Source: Anolis carolinensis (lineage: Eukaryota). From it: 64,000 nt of DNA. Where the stretch lies: the NCBI RefSeq assembly GCF_035594765.1, contig NW_026943825.1, positions 434,001 through 498,000 on the forward strand, read 5' to 3'. Below the pieces are notes generated by a model. That model was not told the origin of the DNA. It was given only the letters and a program-made list of their open reading frames with translations, and made no database searches. This document shows, one piece after another, positions 18,521 to 50,296 of this stretch. Position numbers and translations under genes: made by a program. Within the stretch, counting starts at the first letter, position 1. Each line of letters begins with the position of its first letter.

Positions 18521-19638
18521 GCTGCAAAATCAAGGCCTTGAGGGCCAAGACCAACACCTACATCAAGACCCCAGTGCGAGGCGAGGAGCCTGTCTTCATG
18601 GTGACCGGGCGGAGGGAGGACGTGGCCATGGCCCGGAGGGAAATCATCTCGGCTGCCGAGCACTTCTCCATGATCCGGGCCTCTCGCAACAAGGCCGGCA
18701 GTACCTTTGGAAGCGCCCCCACACTGCCGGGGCAGGTCACCATCCGGGTCCGGGTCCCGTATCGCGTGGTGGGCCTGGTGGTGGGGCCCAAAGGTGCCAC
18801 CATCAAGCGGATCCAGCAGCAGACCAACACCTACATCATCACTCCCAGCCGGGACCGGGACCCTGTCTTCGAGATCACAGGAGCGCCGGGCAATGTGGAG
18901 CGGGCCCGTGAGGAGATAGAGACCCACATCGCCGTCCGGACGGGCAAGATCCTGGAGTACAACAATGAGAACGACTTCCTGTCCAGCAGCCCCGACTCAG
19001 GCCTGGAGAACCGCTACTCAGAGGCCTGGCGCGTCCATACTCCGGCTCCCGGCTGCAAGCCCCTCTCTACCTTCCGCCAGAACAGCCTGGGCTGCATTGG
19101 GGACTGCTCTGTAGAGCCCGCCTACGAGACGCCCCGCCTCAATGACCAAAATGACTTCAATTACAGTTACCTCTTCCCCAACTATGGCGTCAACAAGCAA
19201 GACCTGTACTATGGGGTCTCGGAGTCAGGGGCTCCGCTGTGGGCCGGGCAGGAGAACACCAACCCCGTCTCCATCCTCTTCTCCAAGCAGCAGCAGCGGT
19301 CCGGCAGTGCAAGCACCCTCCACTCCAACTCCCATCGCTCCCCGTCCTCCTCCTCCCTCCCCGAGCCTCCGCTCTCCGGGCTTCCCAGGCGGTCTCAAGG
19401 GGAGACCCTGCCGGGCTTCTCCAAACTGGGCGCCTCCTCCACCGGCGCCGGCCGGACGCCCCTCTCCAGCAGCCGGGAGTGCATGGTTTGCTTCGAGAGC
19501 GAGGTGACTGCCGCCCTGGTCCCTTGTGGCCACAACCTCTTCTGCATGGAGTGCGCCGTCCGGATCTGTGAGCGAACCGACCCCGAGTGCCCCGTGTGCC
19601 ATGCAGCAGCCACGCAGGCCATACGAATATTTTCTTAA
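18521..19638 (+). CDS. MEX3A: MEX3A coding exon 2 (KH1, KH2, C-terminal RING); total CDS 1740 nt, 579 aa
   Basis: Acceptor tctctttcag|G; [19 protein letters not shown] Gxx[51 protein letters not shown]...CPVC, ends AIRIFS-TAA; synteny with RAB25/LAMTOR2. Confidence 0.97.
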
Positions 19639-21192
19639 AGACAGACACGCAAGCCCACCAAGGAAGAAAGAAACCAACCAACAAAACCACGAGAGACAGA
19701 CAGACAGGCAGATAGCATTTGGGGATAAATTTGGAGTGGGTGACAGGACGGGAGGGAGGGGACCGTGGAGGAGAGAGGGAGATCAAGACAGAATGAGACA
19801 CGTCCGAGGGACGAACAAACAAATCAGAAATAAGAAAAGGAAATTAATTTAAAGATGAAGAAAGAAATTATTTTAGCAGTGTATGTTATTGTTAAAGAAA
19901 ATAATGATAAGGATGATGGTAGTGGTGGTGGAAAAGAAAAAGGAAGAAGGTAGAACTATTAGAGAAGGCCATTGCCATACAAGAGCTTGGACACGGAGAA
20001 CTCTATCCAATGGAAACAGTGCTTAGAGAACAGAGGAGGTTTTGGGGGCGCGACCTGGGCAGGGTCTGCAGCTCTGTCCTCAATGGAGAGAGACGTCTGA
20101 AGGGGACGGATTGGAAGGAGGCACCCACTTCGGGTGGGGCTGTGGTCCAAAGATGGCCGGACGCGGCCACTGGGCCTTCAAACTGCATTGGAAGCTAAAG
20201 AGGACGGGATCTGATGACAAAGGAGGAAGAGGAGGAGGGAAACCATCAGCCTCTGGGAACCTAATCAAACGAGGGCACAACTGTATTACCTCAAACATTT
20301 CAAAGAGAAAAAAAGCAGCTAAAGACCTTTATATTCTTTGTCCTCTATTTTGTTCCTAAGGAAAAAAACAAAACAAGTAAAACAAAACACGTAATATTAA
20401 AGCCAGTGAAATTGTGGGGCGGAAGGAATGGGGTCGGAAGGGCCCGTTGGAAGAACCTTCTTGGCCGCCTTGAAATTTTTCATTTTGAGTCTTCTGAGCC
20501 ACTGCTTTCGGACATTTGTTTTTTTTCCGTTTTTCTGTTTGGGCAGGGATTCATCCAATAAGGATCAGGAGTCACTAACAGGGTATTTCCAAGACAAAAC
20601 GACCGACTTCTCCCCATGGAAACGAACCTTTCAAATTCCCGAGTCAAGGGGGAATTGCGAGGGCCGCGCTCCACGTTTCTATATATTTTTTTTGCTTCTT
20701 ATCCTTGCCAGATGATACAAATTCAAAATAAAAACAGTCACACATGCCAACAACAACAAAGAGAAACATCTTTTCTTCCTTTCTTTCTCTTTTGGTTTCA
20801 ACAACGACAACAATAATTTCACACCAAACCTAAGAAAGACAATAATGCAATACTGGCCACAAAGCCCATGTCAAACCAATTCACAACCCGATGGAAAGCA
20901 AAAAAAGAAAAGAAATAATAATAATATATATCTATATCTATCTATCTATCTATATATATATATGAATTAACATGTTTATATATAATTTTGTCGTCTTTTT
21001 AAACTGGACCAAAACTTTTGTTACTCAAATCCAAGTAAAGAGAGAGAGAGAAAAAGAGTATTTCCTTATGGACCAAAACCTCTTTTCGCTGTCCGCACAT
21101 GGATCTTCCTGAGGTTGCCTACTTTTATATATTCTATTTTTTTCAGAATGAAGCAAACAGACACATGCTCAATAATAATAATAATAATAATA

Positions 21193-21227
<35 letters not shown>

Positions 21228-23649
21228 ATTGAATTGCCTTGTCAAACATCCTTAATCATTTCAAGACATTTTGACTCCTGCTTTGGTTAACATCTGAAAC
21301 TGTAGACTGTTGGGAACCAGAGAGACGGCGCAAGCAGAGATGCGGAAAGGGAGACTTCGAACAGCCAAGTCGTTTGTGTGAAGGGAGAAAGATAGGTAGA
21401 TAGATACAGCGTATGCACACGCTCTCCATCTCTCTTGGCCCCTTTTCCTCCTTCCCAACTCTCCCCTCTTTTTACCTTTGCTTAAGATTTTCGGACCTTT
21501 ATTTCAGAAGGAAACTTTGGAATTGAGCTAGAAGAGAGTGCTTGTTTGGAGGGGCGTCCTTGTATACTTCACTTCCCTTTCCTTTCCTCCCAACACACTG
21601 TCCCTTGACTTCTTTGTGTTTCTCCTTGGTGGTCCCTCCGGTCGTCTGTTGGTAGGGCTGGGTCTACTCTGACTCTAAGGAAGGCCATTTGGTAGATGTT
21701 GTATTTTGCTCCTTCTCAGAGAGTGATGAGGACAGGGCCTCTCTTCTCTGCAGCCAAATTGGAAGCCCAGAGCCCATCTTTTGGCCTCCTTCCACGGGAT
21801 GGACATCTTGCCAAATTCCTGCCCCCTTCCCGCACAAGATCGGGGTCTCAAAGAGTATACCCAGCACTGCCTTCCGAGTTTGGCGAAATGCGCAATGTTT
21901 GCCGAATGTTCTTATTGTTCCCAAGTTCGGTGAAATGCGCAATGTTTGCCGAATGGGACAAGCGATCGCCGCCCAAGTTTTAGAAGTTTTAGAAGCGACG
22001 GCTTTGTGTACATATTGCCCAGAAGCCGAGAGAGAACCCGCAGTGGAGATGAAATATGCTGACCGTCTGCCCGCTCCTGGTTCTGCTCTTTTGGCCAAAA
22101 AAGGGGAGACTGTCAATCAGGCAGAAAAGAGGCGTCCGTTCCATGCCGTTTGCAACCTTCATCCTCCAGAATTGGTTGTTTTATTCCCTCAAATTCACAA
22201 AACAGTAGGCCTCACCTTTTGCAACCTTCATCCTCCAGAATTGGTTGTTTTACTCCATCAAATTCACAAAACTCCAAATTTTGGAGACCTTTTCGTGTCC
22301 GCTTGAGCCAATCTGGCCACCTCCGATCCTGTTTCGTTGCAAAAATATTGATTCTGTGAGAACGAATGCTGGAGAATAAATAAAAAAAGGGCAGAAGTGG
22401 ACACCCTTGGCCTCAGTTTCTCAAGCAAAGCGTCTTTGCGGGAGTTTCCTTCCCAACAACTTCAGTGGGAATGGGGGTGGGAATGGGATGGCCATTGGTC
22501 ACCTCTTGCACCCCTTCTGTTCTCCCCAGATCCCCCCTCTTTTTCCTATATGCCAGCAAAACAACTTTCTATGCATTCCTTTCCAAAAAAAAACAACAAA
22601 ATCCCACAAAGACGTTTGTAACACCTCGGCGATGGCCTCTGCCCTCGAAGGCCATGGATTCTGACAGTCTCCCCTTTTTAGAAGATGTTCTCGTGAAAAA
22701 ATGAAAAAGAGAAAAAGGAAGTCTATATATAACAGAATGCTTGTTTTTTTTTTTAAAGAACTGAATAGATCTATAGTTATCCCAGTAGAAGAAAACCAGA
22801 GGAGGGTGGGGGGAAAAAAAGGAAAGAAGGTCAGGAGATGGAATTAACCTTTTTTCTTTCTTTCTCGTTCTTTCTTTCATCCTTTCGTTTTTCAAAAGAA
22901 ATGGTGGAAGCGAGTGGAGGAAACGTGGGGAGAGGCACTGTGGTGGCCTTCTCCCGCATATGTAGATATTAAAAATGTGTGCTGGTGGAAGAGGAGGAGG
23001 AGGAGGAAGGGGTGCCCAAAATGGATTTGGGCCGAGAGCCATGTCCCGTCCCTCCGGCCGTCTTGAAGGAAGTGGGCCGGACGTGTTTCTTTGAATTTAG
23101 TTGTTTTTGGCGGAGTGACGTCTGTTTGTCGTTGACGTGAGGAAGTTTTCGGTCCATGTTTTCTTAATTTTGTGCTAGGCAACGGAGGAGGAGGAGGAGC
23201 GATGGGGAGAGGAAGGAGTGAGTGGGAAAAGTGAGAAAGGAGAGAGCGAGAGAGTTGGATATCTTGGGGGGTATGGCCCCTGGATAGGCCTCCTCCTTCC
23301 CTCAGTTTCCCCCATGGTCTTCTTATTACAGTGCGACCCCAGTATCCACAAGGAAGACATTCATTCCAGGACTCCGTCTTGATACGCGAAATTCCGGATC
23401 ACGCACAAGCCATTGAGGACTTCCTCCAGCCATTGAGTTGCACTGGAGGACCTCAGAAATAGATAAACGCCATGGTGAGTCCTGATCGTGTGGATACGGG
23501 TCTCGTACTGTCAGATGAACATGGGAAGAAGTCTTCCCCTTGTATACATGCATGACGAGAATATTAGAATATTTCCCCCTTTTCTAAAAGTAATAATAAT
23601 AATAATATGGATAAAAGTATAAAACCCAAACCAATATCCGCATTTGCTA

Positions 23650-23773
23650 ATGGGAGTCGGAAGCGGTGCTGTGAACACGTGTTGTTCCGAGGCGGGATAA
23701 CCCTAAGCCGTTATCCTGCCTCGGAGAGACACGTGTTCACGGGACGGGCGAACACACCTCTTCTGACTTCCAT
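23650..23773 (+). ncRNA. Long RNA hairpin, candidate pri-miRNA or structured UTR element
   Basis: 33-position stem 23669-23701/23710-23742 with one mismatch, 8-nt loop, plus 19-position basal stem. Confidence 0.45.
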
Positions 23774-25041
23774 CTTTTTCCTTTAAGGAAAAAAAAAAAG
23801 TAGGAAAGAAAAAAGGGTTTCGTTTTTTAGTTCCAATAACCTTTTATCTATCTAATCTATATATACATATACATATATATTAAAAGAAAGCCTGATGTAG
23901 CAGCTCTAGTTTAATAGCAGTATTTTAACTCCCATCTTTTAAAAATATATATAAATATAAATATATATATATATATTTCCGTCAACTTGCCCCCTCGTTA
24001 TTTTTTAAATGTAGCAAGAAAAGAAAAAGAAAAGAAAAAAAGGTTTTAAATGGAAAACAGTCCTCCTGTGTTGAAAGGAATGAAGGGAGGAAGGGAGGAA
24101 TAAAGGCATTGTGGGGCTGGTGTGCCCTCACACCCATTCCCCCTTACAGGAAGGCAGTGGGAATAAATTTGCATAATTACCTTTAAAAAATATATGTATC
24201 TATATAAATCTGAAAAAGGAAAAAATGCCCAAGACCTTAAGCTTTTGCTCCGATGTCCACCTTCCTCATCCGGGGGCAGATTGCAAGTCTCTTTGGGGGA
24301 GAAAACGGGGCTCGTGCTTGGCACGGCTCCCCCCAAAGTTCAGATTAAACTCTGAACGGGTTTGCTCCCTCTGCCCCAAGCTACGCTCGTCAGTCAGATT
24401 CATCAGCAATAAAGACGACTAAACATTAGGACGACCATGATTTTTATTAGTGTTATTGTTTGAGGAGAAGCAGCCCCTCCCTCCGTTGGGGCCCGGAAAG
24501 CCCAGCCTGTGCCAATCTCTGAACCTGCACTGAAATCCATGTCGCCTGGAAGGTCCCACAAACTTGTGGGTTTCAGTCCAAGCTTTTGAGGCATCCAAGA
24601 CGGCCAAAAACCGTTCCCAAACACAATCAGACCCTCTTGGCTGCCAAAGTTCGGACTGGGCCTGACCACCCAATCGCACTGACCAGCAGGGTCCAACCCT
24701 TGATCTCAGGGCCCCCGTGAGACCCAACCGGCCTTACTCTGACTGACTGCCATCACCACCATTGCCTTGTGGCCCAGGGAGGACCCCTGCCCTTTTGCTT
24801 TAAATCAAGCAGGGCTCCTCCACCTGGCTGACCAGATAGAGAACAAAATATGGCCTCTTCTTGTACGAACACAGCACCAAATCCTGTGCGATGGCTGCAT
24901 AAATCAGAGTCCGAAGTTATCCCGATAATCGTAGCTGGCTTTGGTGTCTGGAATTCGGGCCAAATTCAAGACAACAGAGCTCTCCTGAGAGACTGGCTTG
25001 TTACACGTTACTTGTAACTCGGACCCACCAGCGGGCATATA

Positions 25042-25527
25042 CAGTAGAGTCTCACTTAACCAAACATAAACGGGCCGGCAGAATGTTGGATAAGCGAATA
25101 TGTTGGATAATAAGGAAAAGCCTATTCAACATCAAATTAGGTTATGATTATACAAATTAAGCACCAGAACATCATGTTAGACAACAAATTTCACAGAAAA
25201 AGTACAGTAGAGTCTTACTTATCCAAGCTAAACGGGCCGGCAGAAGCTTGGATAAGCGAATATCTTGGATAATAAGGAAAGATTAAGGAAAAGCCTATTA
25301 CACATCAAATTAGGTTATGATTTTACAAATTAAGCACCGAAACATCATGTTATACAACAAATTTGACAAAAAAGGTAGTTCTATACGTAATAATGTTATG
25401 TTGTAATTACTGTATTTACAAATTTAGCACTAAAATATCACGATGTATTGAAAACACTGACTACAAAAATGCGTTGGATAATCCAGAACGTTGGATAAGC
25501 GAGTGTTGGATAAGTGAGACTCTACTG
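25042..25527. mobile_element. MITE family A, partial copy plus full copy
   Basis: TIR starts at 25042 and 25205, right TIR ends 25527. Confidence 0.88.
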
Positions 25528-25567
25528 TACTTGTAACTCTGACCCGCCTTGGAGCCCAGCGGATGTA

Positions 25568-25873
25568 CAGTAGAGTCTCACTTAACCAAAATAAACGGGC
25601 CGGCAGAATGTTGGATAAGCGAATATGTTGGATAATAAGGAGGGATTAAGGAAAAGCCTATTAAACATCAAATTAGGTTATGATTTTACGAATTAAGCAC
25701 CAAAACACCATATTATACAACAAATTTGACAGAAAAAGTAGTTCAATACGCAGTAATGCTATGCAGCAATTACTGCATGTACAAATTTAGCACCAAAATA
25801 TCATGATGTATTGAAAACATTGACTACAAAAATGCGTTGGATAAGCAAATGTTGGATAAGTGAGACTCTACTG
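25568..25873. mobile_element. MITE family A
   Basis: TIRs and TA flanks. Confidence 0.9.
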
Positions 25874-26946
25874 TACATTCTAGGGGTGTGCGGATCTGTT
25901 CTGTTTTTGTTTTGAATTTTGAGTGCTCCCCATTCCGTTTCTGATTTTGGGAGGTTAGGAGGGGGGCTGTTTGGATTCATAATTCGGAAACTTGAGTTCC
26001 ATTCTGGGAAGAATCTTCACAAAAACGGAACAGATTGTGTGCTGTTTCATATGCCCCTAAACATTCCGCCCCAAGGGTCTCTCACCTGGCCAGGATCCCA
26101 CTTTGTTCAGCCTGCGACCACTCTCGATGTGCTATTTGCACCTCCAAAAACCCAGCCATTGGACAGCAAGGTTTATAGGGGTGCTGCTAATAGAAGTGGA
26201 AGGCTTTCTGAGGCCATTGTGTGAAATAGGTGAACCTGGTGAAATGCAGCATCGAGGGATGAGATCACACACATATTATAGAACGAAGGCTTTTGTCTCG
26301 CAATGGCCAGAATTCTGGGAAATGATGTTGAGATGAGATGAGGTGAAACCTGCTACTGTCCGCTGGTTGGACTTGAAAGTTACGGCCTGAATGGAGTAGA
26401 GCCATGTTGGATGGTGAGCCCATGTGTAGAGAGATCCCGTTTGTCCAATCAGACGGATGGAGAGATTCAGACGGTAGTGTCCAGTCGGGATGGGTATTGT
26501 GCCGTCTTTTGAGGGTCGGGTTTGGTCCCTTTCGGAGCTCTATGGACGTGAATTCCCCATCCCACTGTCTATGTTGTGCTCCTCTCCATGTAGAAAACAT
26601 TGCACCCAGCTGGGAAAATGACAACACAAGGCAGGGAATGTAATAGCGAGTAGGTTGCCCGGAAGGGATTAGACACAGAGGCAGAATGGACATGCGTTGA
26701 CGCCGATCCTACTCTGACTTTGCATTGGGACCTTGAGCGTTTTTAAGGTGGATTTCCATCAGTCAATGGTCAGAACTTCCAGTAACCCACCAGCTCACCA
26801 TCTAAGAACAAACGAGCATAATTTCTTGTGTCTGGAGGCAGAGTCTTGTAGATGTTTTCCTTGATAAATTCTTGCATTAAAAGTAATGTTAATGAGTAAA
26901 GGAAGCCAGGCAGATAGTTTGACCAAGCTCTTCGGTGGTTTAAATA

Positions 26947-27254
26947 CAGTAGAGTCTCACTTATCCAACATAAACGGGCCGGCAGAATGTTGGATAAGTG
27001 AATATGTTGGATAATAAGGAGGCATTAAGGAAAAGCCTATTAAACATCAAATTAGGTTATGATTTTACAAATGAAGCACCAAAACATCATGTTAGACAAC
27101 AAATTTGGCAGAAAAAGTAGTTCAGTACGCAGTAATGCTATGTAGTAATTACTGTATTTATGAATTTAGCATCAAAATATTACGATATATTGGAATCATT
27201 GACTACAAAAATGCGTTGGATAATCCAGAACGTTGGATAAGCGAGACTCTACTG
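26947..27254. mobile_element. MITE family A
   Basis: TIRs present. Confidence 0.9.
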
Positions 27255-29118
27255 TTTGTGCGTTTCCCTTTCATTCGTGGATCAATTAATTGATTGACAA
27301 AGGGTGGCGGCCGCAAATGTTTGGCCACTCATTTGGGAGGGGTTTCCATCTCTTGCCGGTTTTTCTTTGCTTGGGATCTTAGACGGGAGAGCTGGCTTTC
27401 TATGAGAATATCTGCATTAGTTGAAGCATTGCTATGGCAAAAAGAAAGGAATGGATATTTGGGGAGGGAGGGAGGGGGCCCGGTTTGCATAAAGTGAAAG
27501 GAAAGTTATTGATAAAAGTGATGTAAAAGTAGTAGTATTGTAATAGTTTTTTTAAAATGGAGAAATGAGTTTGGAATTATATACAAATGAGGCTCAATCG
27601 ATCAAAATGGCAATCCAATCCAGACTCTGGGGGCAGACACTTTGTGTAGCTGGTGGGATAGCGGTCTGGTATTTTTCCTTTCTTTCTCTTCTCTTTCTTT
27701 CTTTCCTTCCTTTCTTTTCTTTCTCTCTTTGTCTTGTAAAAAAGAATCCCCAGCAATGCAAAGGCTACGACTGTTACGCCCCTCGGATCCAAACGACAGC
27801 AACACACATTGCAAACCTTTTTATTCCTTTCAGAATATTATTTTTTATTTTAATTTTTTTTTGCCTTGATGATGCGCATTTTGATGCCTAGTTGTTTGGG
27901 TTTGTTTTTTTTTAAAAAAAAAGAAAAGAAAAAAGGCAAAAGGGGGAAATGAGGAAAAAATTAGAACCTTTCTTTATAATTTAATATTCTATTTTAATAA
28001 ATGCATTTATTACATGTAAATGTATTAAGGAACTGGGCTAAATAAAAAAAATACTTTTTATTAGGTAATTTATTATTATAAGGAAAAAAGGATATTTTAT
28101 TTTATGATAAAGTGATCCTTACAAAGATTAGAATGTTTAGAATATATGTAGGTTAAAAAATACATTTGTATCCAGAGTATGGCTTAAAAAGTGTTTTTAA
28201 TATATGTTCCACTTTCTTTCCTTCCTCTTGTGTGTGCGTGTATGGTGTGTATCAGTGGATAGTGGTGGTGGTGGTGAGAATAGCCCTTCCAAGAAAGAAA
28301 ACGCTGCTGCAAGGTTGTATTTGACACACACACAAAAAAATAAGACTTTTAGAATTGGCAAAACGTCACTCTTTTTTAATAAGTTAAAACATTAAGGATT
28401 TGGCTGTGATTTCGAACTAGTCCCAACCCGAAGAGGCTGGGGTTATTATTTGATTCGACACGAGACTTCTAATGCGTACCGAGCAGAGGGCTCGGTGGCG
28501 TTGCAAATTTTGGGTGGAATCAGGCCGGTTCCGGTTCCGGTTCTTCTCGATAGAGATTGTGAAAGAGCCTTGAAAGCCGGGCCCAACAGCTGGGTTTGTC
28601 CTAAGTGGGAGCAAATCTTCCTAATACCATCTTCCTCGGCCAGCATTAAGCCTGAGGATCCCTGGTCTGATGTTGTAGTCTCCAAAGGGCACTTTGTTTG
28701 GATGGAGCAATAGGATATCTGGATGCGTTGAGCCTTCCCGTTGGGCTTCTGCATGGAGACTGGAGGCAGGAGGAAATCCCAAAGTTGTGGAGCACCATAC
28801 GGCCAAGACAGGAGAGCAGACCCCTCATCTGTCCCAGGGTTAGAATAACCTTAAAGCCCATTACGAAACCCCTCAAAGGCTCATTGCAAGTCTTAGAGAT
28901 CCCTAGAGAACCTTCTCTAGGAACGTCTAGCTCCTCCGAGATGATCCTTGGGTTAAGTGAATGCCATCAAATCTTTCATTAAACCTAAAAGGAGTTTTAT
29001 GGGTGCCGGAAGAGCTTCTGCACCTTCAAGTTCACCTTCTCAACTTGTGGCCTTCCAACGCCCAGGATTCCATACCATTGGCAATAGAGTCTTCTGGGAA
29101 TTGGAGGGCTGTGGGTTG

Positions 29119-42254: not shown

Positions 42255-42725
<471 letters not shown>

Positions 42726-47163: not shown

Positions 47164-47638
47164 TCTATATATATATAAGAGTAATGGCATCACGGCGACC
47201 CACAAAACAACAAAACTACAGGACCCCCAACCTCGAAATTTGACAACACAACCCATCATCCACGCCTCTAGGTTGATACAACAAAAAGAAAAGAAAAATA
47301 AAGTCCTAATTAGAGAGAGAGGAATAATTGCTTTTATCCAATTGCTGCCAGTTAGAAGGCTAAGCTCCTCCAACTTGGTCTCCTAGCAACCCAATAAAAA
47401 ATAATAAAAAACACTAAAAATAATTAAAAACACTAAAAAAATTAATACAATAAAATACTATAATAACAGAAAATAACTAAAAATAATACAAGAAAATAAT
47501 AAAATATAATAAATAAAAAGATAACTTACAATAAAATAAATTAAAAAATACAAATAACGTCAAATAAAAATTACACAACAATTTTTAACCAATACCACCA
47601 CCACTTTGCCACAGCAACGCGTGGCCGGGCACAGCTAG
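47164..47638 (+). mobile_element. Non-autonomous Helitron
   Basis: A|TC 5' end, 3' hairpin gccac...gtggc and CTAG|T; no TSD. Confidence 0.78.
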
Positions 47639-47659
47639 TGTTATATTATATATATATTA

Positions 47660-48235
47660 CTAGCTGTGCCCGGCCACGTGTTGCTGTGGCGAAGTATGTT
47701 GTTATGGGAAATAAAGTATTGAGGAATTGGTGGTAGTGAAGGTCAAGGGTCAAGGTTTTCCCCTGACGTTAAGTCCAGTTGTGTCCGACTGCACACTGAA
47801 GTGGATCATATGGCAGTGTGGAGTCAAGATAATCCTGTTCAAAGCAGATAATATAAGATTATAAATGGGTTCTATAGCTGGGTGGAAGGGCCTTGAGTCT
47901 ACACTGCCATATAATCCAGTTCAAATCTGATAATCTGTCTTTTATAGGCAGTGTGGAAGAGGCCTAAGTGAGGCCTAACTCTGCCTGTCCCCTGGGCTGA
48001 GTGGGTTGCTAGGAGACCAAGTGGGCGGAGCTTAGCCTTCTAACTGGCAGCCATTGGATAAAAACAATTCTTCCTCTCCCTCTAATTAGGACTTTATTTT
48101 TCTTTTCTTTTTGTTGTATGAATGTAGAGGCATGGATGAGGGGTTGTGCTGCCAAGTTTAGTGTTTCTGGGATGTGTAGTTTTGTTGTTTTGTCCTAGGC
48201 CGAAATTTCATTACCCTTTTATATATATATATAGA
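47660..48235 (-). mobile_element. Non-autonomous Helitron (related family)
   Basis: Same 3' terminus on the - strand; 5' TC near 48235. Confidence 0.78.
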
Positions 48236-49353: not shown

Positions 49354-49481
49354 CTGCAAAGGAGGACCGCAATGAGAACCATGCCTGCAGGGAGTGGGCC
49401 CTCCTGAGGTCATCTAGACTGACCTAAGGCAACCTGATGGGGCGGGGGCCCTCCTGAAGCCCCGCAGAAGCCCCTCATCAC

Positions 49482-49675
49482 CTGCGTACATCCGGGCCTC
49501 CTGGGTGGGCACCTCTCGGCTGTGTGCCAGGTCGGCCTTGTTTCCCACCAGCATGACCACGATGGTGGCCTCGGCGTGGTCGTAGAGCTCCTTCAGCCAG
49601 CGCTCCACCACCTCGTAGCTCTGGTGCCGGGAGATGTCGTAGACCAGCAGCGCTCCCACGGCACCGCGGTAGTAT
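49482..49675 (-). CDS. RAB25: RAB25 exon 3 (194 nt)
   Basis: ctccag|A; [49 protein letters not shown]...EARMYA; donor G|gtgatg. Confidence 0.95.
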
Positions 49676-49721
49676 CTGGAGGAGGGAACGAGAATGCTTA
49701 CGGAAAAGTAAACAACTGCTT

Positions 49722-50296
49722 TTGAAGCAGCGCTAAGGAATAGTTTTCTCAAGAGAGAAAGAATTTTCTCATGAAAGGAAGACCTTGGATTTCCCTTATG
49801 AAGCAGCTTGATGAATAGTTTTCTCATGAGAGAGTTTTCTCATGAAAGGAAGACCTTGGATTTCCCTTATGAAGCAGCTTGATGAATAGTTTTCTCATGA
49901 GAGAGTTTTCTCATGAAAGGAAGACCTTGGATTTCCCTTATGAAGCAGCGCTGATGAATAGTTTTTTCACGAGAGTTTTCTCATGAAAGAAAGACCTTGG
50001 ATTTCCCTTATGAAGCAGCTTGATGAATAGTTTTCTCATGAGAGTTTTCTCATGAAAGGAAGACCTTGGATTTCCCTTATGAAGCAGCTCTGATGAATAG
50101 TTTTCTCACAAGAGAAAGAGTTTTCTCATGAAAGAAAGACCTTGGATTTCCCTTATGAAGCAGTGCTGATCTCTCTTTCTTTTCACGAGAGTTTTCTCAT
50201 GAAAGAAAGACCTTGGATTTCCCTTATGAAGCAGCGCTGATGAATAGTTTTCTCATGAGAGTTTTCTCATGAAAGGAAGACCTTGGATTTCCCTTA
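49722..50296. repeat. Tandem repeat, ~71-bp unit, 8 copies
   Basis: gaccttggatttccctta at 49781, 49852, 49923, 49993, 50062, 50138, 50209, 50279. Confidence 0.92.

Follow-up and report, generated by a model that had tools for sequence, protein, structure and literature searches.

The window that we analysed, a stretch of 64,000 nucleotides from Anolis carolinensis, contains a gene whose product has KH and RING domains and matches MEX3 structures, and the hairpin that is the subject of our study lies 4.0 kb beyond the stop codon of this gene. RAB25 and LAMTOR2 are found downstream of the MEX3 gene on the opposite strand. In what we take to be the human gene order MEX3A likewise stands with RAB25 and LAMTOR2, which would make the gene here MEX3A. 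The name rests on the domains and the neighbours together, and both support the MEX3A assignment of the initial annotation. A RING-domain query finds at least three MEX3 genes in the genome (C16, C13 and C2), and the fourth one, absent from these, would presumably be MEX3D. The minus strand also carries two tandem Rab genes (42255-42725 and 49417-49839), one of which, lying between MEX3A and RAB25, is RAB11-like; for the human counterpart region we assume RAB25 only and no second Rab gene. The coordinates of the features are collected in Table 1.

Table 1. Features of MEX3A and of the hairpin in its downstream region (positions in the window)
Feature	Positions	Strand	Remarks
MEX3A coding exon 1	2211-2832	+	ATG to predicted splice donor
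MEX3A coding exon 2	18521-19638	+	KH domains, RING; stop codon TAA at 19636-19638
MEX3A 3' UTR, putative, ~8.5 kb	19639-28200	+	Contigs of probable RNA runs and paralog-shared block; end unmapped
Second, weaker multibranch structure	23328-23512	+	Single-copy; 140 nt upstream of the hairpin
Lower stem, 5' arm	23650-23668	+	19 positions; fold, pair count and shuffle test
Upper stem, 5' arm	23669-23701	+	33 positions; carries the ACACGTGT palindrome
Apical loop	23702-23709	+	8 nt; without UGU or GUG
Upper stem, 3' arm	23710-23742	+	Carries the mirrored ACACGTGT palindrome
One-sided bulge	23743-23754	+	12 nt
Lower stem, 3' arm	23755-23773	+	19 positions; fold, pair count and shuffle test
AT-rich block, likely terminal conserved element	27944-28178	+	Common to the 3' UTRs of both other MEX3 genes

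The hairpin probably lies within the MEX3A 3' UTR, near the middle of its approximately 8.5 kb. We infer this length because contigs from sequencing runs cross the hairpin and because a block shared with the paralogs follows downstream. The runs are four of the 18 that match, one from each of four studies, and they are RNA by our guess: none is recorded as RNA, and their sizes of 21-79 million letters, far below the 1.85 Gb of the genome, fit RNA. All 24 runs listed for the MEX3A stretch come from one organism. In every run one contig spans the whole hairpin (22223-23844 in X1, X10 and X11, 22890-23844 in X6). The pieces of X1 begin at 19672, a contig of X11 reaches 24329 and another of X6 extends from 24186 to beyond 25040. 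In X1 and X10 there is no contig cover beyond an AT repeat near 23,975, where X11 and X6 continue, and the gap in the former two proves nothing. The hairpin is identical in the contigs of all four runs; the runs were picked for their match and contigs drop rare variants, and this identity is uninformative on editing or constraint.

The AT-rich block at the distal end matches the UTR of the C13 paralog with E-values of 7e-6 and 1e-3 and that of the C2 paralog more weakly, and from this similarity it likely marks the 3' end of MEX3A near 28.2 kb. It may correspond to the conserved untranslated region of Mex3b that is cited in PMC10120280. The initial annotation had placed the hairpin in the MEX3A 3' region, and with four probable RNA runs and the end block a position in the 3' UTR itself becomes probable. 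Other parts of this putative UTR are less uniform. Over 24186-25040 five substitutions and three indels separate run X6 from the window, so this part varies within the species. A direct duplication of about 58 nt is present at 22146-22272, and the contigs of all four runs break there. Several copies of a repeat of about 320 bp with inverted ends, which we presume to be Tc1/mariner-like, lie at 25040-25880 and 26939-27259, and the same family is also found downstream of the C13 paralog.

Our analysis confirms the fold of the hairpin in every detail first described. Counted pair by pair, the upper stem consists of 28 Watson-Crick pairs, four G-U pairs and one G-A mismatch, and the lower stem of 16 Watson-Crick pairs, two G-U pairs and one C-U mismatch, which reproduces the claimed stem, loop and bulge geometry in full. 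Both stems together thus hold six G-U pairs and no A-C pair, and 17 unbroken pairs close the apical loop. Adenosines occupy 20 positions of the stem. Folding of both strands, a check proposed with the annotation, gives a minimum free energy of -83 kcal/mol on the plus (MEX3A) strand (z -11.35) and of -66.5 kcal/mol on the minus strand (z -8.17), with none of 200 shuffles equal or better in either case. The pair probabilities of the two stems are mostly above 0.9 in a context of 400 nt and also of 700 nt. The lower stem is non-random on its own, as shuffling the downstream flank 20,000 times never produced at least 16 Watson-Crick pairs in its 19 positions. Among 220 folding windows over 19,600-28,400 the hairpin is the top fold (z -12.4), and the next non-overlapping one has a z of -4.7. 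The weaker multibranch structure upstream (z -4.45 on the plus and -3.56 on the minus strand) has no strand preference.

The differences between the arms are distributed unevenly between the strands. On the sense strand every one of the six transition differences produces G-U. The probability of this is 0.016 in a one-sided and 0.031 in a two-sided test, and about 0.038 under an assumed sense-strand mutation bias of 58:42 towards G-U, p values that have to be read with the bias having been part of the reason why the hairpin was picked. In 15 control stems, by comparison, the pooled counts are 45 G-U vs 35 A-C. None of the eight controls with at least four transitions has them all one way, and among those with at least three this is the case for two of 13, both 3:0. 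Half of the G-U pairs of the hairpin (3 of 6) are a CpG facing a TpG on the sense strand and none involves CpA (p = 0.125 taken alone). The observed/expected ratio of CpG reaches 1.09 for the hairpin, compared with 0.59 for the upstream UTR and 0.34 for the intron, and the 11 CpGs of the hairpin are equalled in only one of 171 UTR windows. Taken together, the G-U bias and the CpG pattern lean towards selection on the sense-strand fold and are modest evidence for it. The six G-U pairs and zero A-C pairs of the initial annotation hold, while the selection read from them was overstated, with a 6:0 split of only p 0.016-0.04 at a site chosen in part for that split.

Our copy counts for the hairpin, in the window and in the genome, are lower bounds. 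A DNA search of the 1.85 Gb genome with the hairpin returned the site itself as its sole match, and the window likewise yielded no second copy, as had been annotated. A 15-mer of the 3' arm has 26 genome matches with one mismatch allowed vs 63 for a control pattern, and of the 20 loci checked none apart from the hairpin site extends past 23 nt. For a 19-mer of the lower arm with two mismatches allowed there are two genome matches vs 21 for the control. Inspection of the hairpin ends by eye agrees with the annotated lack of TA flanks, and also found no 8-bp direct repeat that would suggest a target-site duplication.

A strong stem is in itself not unusual in this genome. We scanned the window and twenty 10-kb stretches, 264 kb in total, with a score that is blind to G-U vs A-C, and found 16 stems of comparable or greater strength once nine AT-rich rows were removed, which is about one strong inverted repeat per 16 kb. 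When other copies of these 16 stems were sought in a 324-kb sample, 13 had at least four, two had one, and the MEX3A hairpin alone had none. Strong stems are therefore ordinary here and single-copy ones are not, since 15 of the 16 comparable stems have other copies. The initial annotation had named dispersed copies of an old MITE as what would speak against a functional element, and the genome-wide searches found none. An origin as a MITE or other dispersed repeat is rejected on the single copy and the absence of a target-site duplication, and it fails in particular because the hairpin is the only one of the 16 stems with no other copy in the 324-kb sample. Two of the stems that came up in the scan may be described here. 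A low-copy stem of 36 positions in one of the control stretches (L075, 5995-6070; z -8.0) has one other match and contains three G-U and two A-C pairs. At 47603-47695 of the window a repeat end that carries a short palindrome and then CTAG is present as an inverted pair, with 24 other copies in the sample, three G-U and no A-C pairs; we take this repeat end to be a Helitron-like 3' end.

A comparison with the other MEX3 genes gave no counterpart. Against the 10 kb downstream of each of the two paralogs the hairpin scored 22-28, and 30 shuffles scored 23-33. The strongest folds in the two paralog UTRs fall on repeat-like sequence, and no similar single-copy hairpin was found in either. An ancient element common to the MEX3 paralogs thus finds no support, given paralog scores no better than shuffles, and we conclude from the two UTRs that the hairpin is not a family-wide element. 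Scans of metagenomes gave no match to the hairpin pattern and no vertebrate MEX3A UTR; the protein scan returned 35 MEX3 relatives, and in none of them was the UTR similar (best E 0.084). MEX3 genes control their own mRNA through the 3' UTR, and the region here that may resemble such systems is the paralog-shared block at 27,944-28,178. The hairpin differs from it in lying 4 kb upstream and in being absent from both paralog UTRs examined.

The initial annotation had seen Microprocessor geometry in the hairpin and had suggested an undescribed miRNA or else a Drosha, Staufen or ADAR element that controls the MEX3A mRNA. Helper motifs are optional in real miRNAs. According to PMC10710096, the preferred pri-miRNA has a stem of 35 bp and a loop of at least 10 nt, and PMC9905709 lists as helpers UG, mismatched GHG (mGHG), UGU and a CNNC 16-18 nt beyond the 3' cut. 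The upper stem of our hairpin has 33 positions. The annotated Microprocessor geometry is weak, for this stem does not end in single-stranded flanks and runs past the one-sided bulge into 19 further positions, and the 5' flank is paired in this lower stem, mostly with a probability of at least 0.9. The loop of 8 nt is shorter than the preferred one. If the 5' cut precedes 23681 there is a UG at -14/-13, and this is the sole helper motif in register. CNNC at +16 to +18 is absent in all eight registers examined, the loop has no apical UGU and the hairpin no mismatched GHG.

Searches of existing collections likewise gave no name to the hairpin. The Rfam search proposed in the annotation was run and found no family: there is no match at the gathering score across the 64-kb window, and at E <= 10 over 22,500-24,600 nothing convincing and no match above 20 bits that overlaps the stem, so a known Rfam RNA family is rejected. 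Of the published catalogues searched, the green anole miRDeep2 tables (352 novel and 261 known rows; PMC4858913), for which a let-7 motif was the positive control, do not contain the motifs of the arms, and neither do bearded dragon miRNA tables (PMC7576210), a multi-species vertebrate heart miRNA table (PMC7931589) or a human novel-miRNA set (PMC4054668). These absences are weak evidence, as the lizard libraries are adult or regenerating and the anole ones use AnoCar2.0, an assembly that may lack this locus (PMC4858913). The anole sheet of known miRNAs has 261 rows vs 282 miRBase precursors, which makes a single-species entry possible (PMC4858913). Among the rows listed in the available anole miRNA target table there are none for MEX3, RAB25, LAMTOR2 or UBQLN4. 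The undescribed-miRNA idea has against it the absence from the catalogues searched and the lack of every helper motif except the basal UG; the miRNA reading is weak, and on present evidence the hairpin cannot be filed as a miRNA.

What could the hairpin be? An undescribed lizard miRNA or a Drosha cleavage site in the MEX3A 3' UTR is in our view unlikely. A Drosha cut near 23681/23732 would free a precursor of about 52 nt and sever the distal half of the 3' UTR. The length of the upper stem and the position of the UG agree with such a cut, and the 12-nt bulge could serve as the basal junction, but the small loop, the paired 5' basal flank and the lack of CNNC, UGU and mGHG argue against it, as do the shortness of the implied precursor and the absence from Rfam and from four miRNA catalogues, the latter with the reservation on adult and regenerating tissues. 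The canonical motifs are perhaps dispensable, since according to bioRxiv 10.1101/2021.10.22.465432 a hairpin in the NFIB 3' UTR is cut by Drosha without DGCR8. We also see only a small chance that a hairpin born by template switching in the lizard lineage was recruited in the MEX3A 3' UTR as a Drosha site or new miRNA. If this were true, the cut would separate the message from its paralog-conserved distal end and would be an added lizard switch on a stem-cell gene. A neutral relic, which needs only the first step, the duplication, of the mechanism favoured below, is quite possible, if on balance still improbable. The hairpin would then be left from a template switch or local inverted duplication, or be an orphan decayed transposon end, that folds and has no function, and its G-U bias would be chance together with a mild transcription-linked mutation bias. 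Template switching builds whole stems in one step and seems random, according to PMC10710096. The same internal palindrome ACACGTGT is present in both arms, the minus strand folds strongly too (z -8.17), and strong inverted repeats are as frequent as given above. A 6:0 split is expected by chance about 2-4% of the time, and the paralog UTRs lack a counterpart. What does not fit a neutral relic is that dispersed copies are absent and a target-site duplication is not seen, that none of the six transitions gives A-C, that CpGs are retained (observed/expected 1.09) and that the other strong stems sampled are nearly all repeats.

A DNA-level element is by far the least probable explanation. The two inverted CACGTG palindromes, which we presume to be E-box-like, would here be an enhancer in a CpG-rich patch and the RNA fold a by-product. 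The presence of ACACGTGT in both arms and the CpG ratio of 1.09 are consistent with this, but it accounts for only eight of the 52 paired positions and for neither the G-U-only bias nor the lower stem. The explanation we favour, tentatively and with a little less than even confidence, is a single-copy inverted repeat that is kept by selection as a double-stranded element of the MEX3A mRNA. Fold, strand preference, single copy and position are established; the steps from there to a function are our proposal. The stem would have originated as a local inverted duplication through an error in copying, probably a template switch, and a 12-nt indel would have followed its birth. The stem would be carried in the tail of the mature MEX3A mRNA, where changes that break the pairing on the sense strand would be disfavoured by selection. 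The helix of about 50 bp (52 positions) could then dock proteins of the Staufen or ADAR type, and this docking may tune the stability or the transport of the MEX3A mRNA. Staufen and ADAR bind long 3' UTR duplexes. The hairpin is probably a likelier candidate for a docking site of double-stranded RNA-binding proteins than for a microRNA, because a long continuous duplex, a small loop and a paired base fit the former better than a pri-miRNA as characterised in PMC10710096. Against the double-stranded element stand the paralog UTRs without a similar hairpin and the modest strand bias. PMC10710096 also reports that template switching yields thousands of hairpins without selection, more than 6,000 of them in primates.

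The hairpin resembles several known systems in part. The NFIB hairpin (Rolando 2016, via bioRxiv 10.1101/2021.10.22.465432) is likewise found in the 3' UTR of a stem/progenitor regulator and is a plausible working model, but for the NFIB hairpins conservation, binding and cleavage have been demonstrated. The template-switch hairpins of PMC10710096 are, as here, single-copy near-perfect inverted repeats in transcribed regions that belong to no family. They differ in that the miRNA cases of that paper are enriched in introns. The MEX3A stem is also not fresh, given its 12-nt asymmetry and eight non-Watson-Crick positions. Like the 3' UTR duplexes bound by Staufen or ADAR, it is a long near-perfect duplex formed within one molecule, in a 3' UTR that is itself long; unlike them, it does not consist of repeat-family copies in inverted orientation. 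In the top-ranked literature matches and the available text of a MEX3A review (PMC12270390) we found no structured RNA element in the MEX3A 3' UTR. The hairpin apparently is undescribed, and its class is that of the known 3' UTR stem-loops.

MEX3A controls stem and progenitor cells, as described in PMC7536324 and PMC12270390. Structured 3' UTR elements are an already known class whichever explanation is correct, and the importance of the finding is at most moderate. A neutral hairpin would be just another accident of copying among many. A selected stem in the MEX3A 3' UTR would, if true, add a control point to this gene, and if it is specific to the lineage it would show cleanly how a developmental gene gains a new regulatory hairpin.
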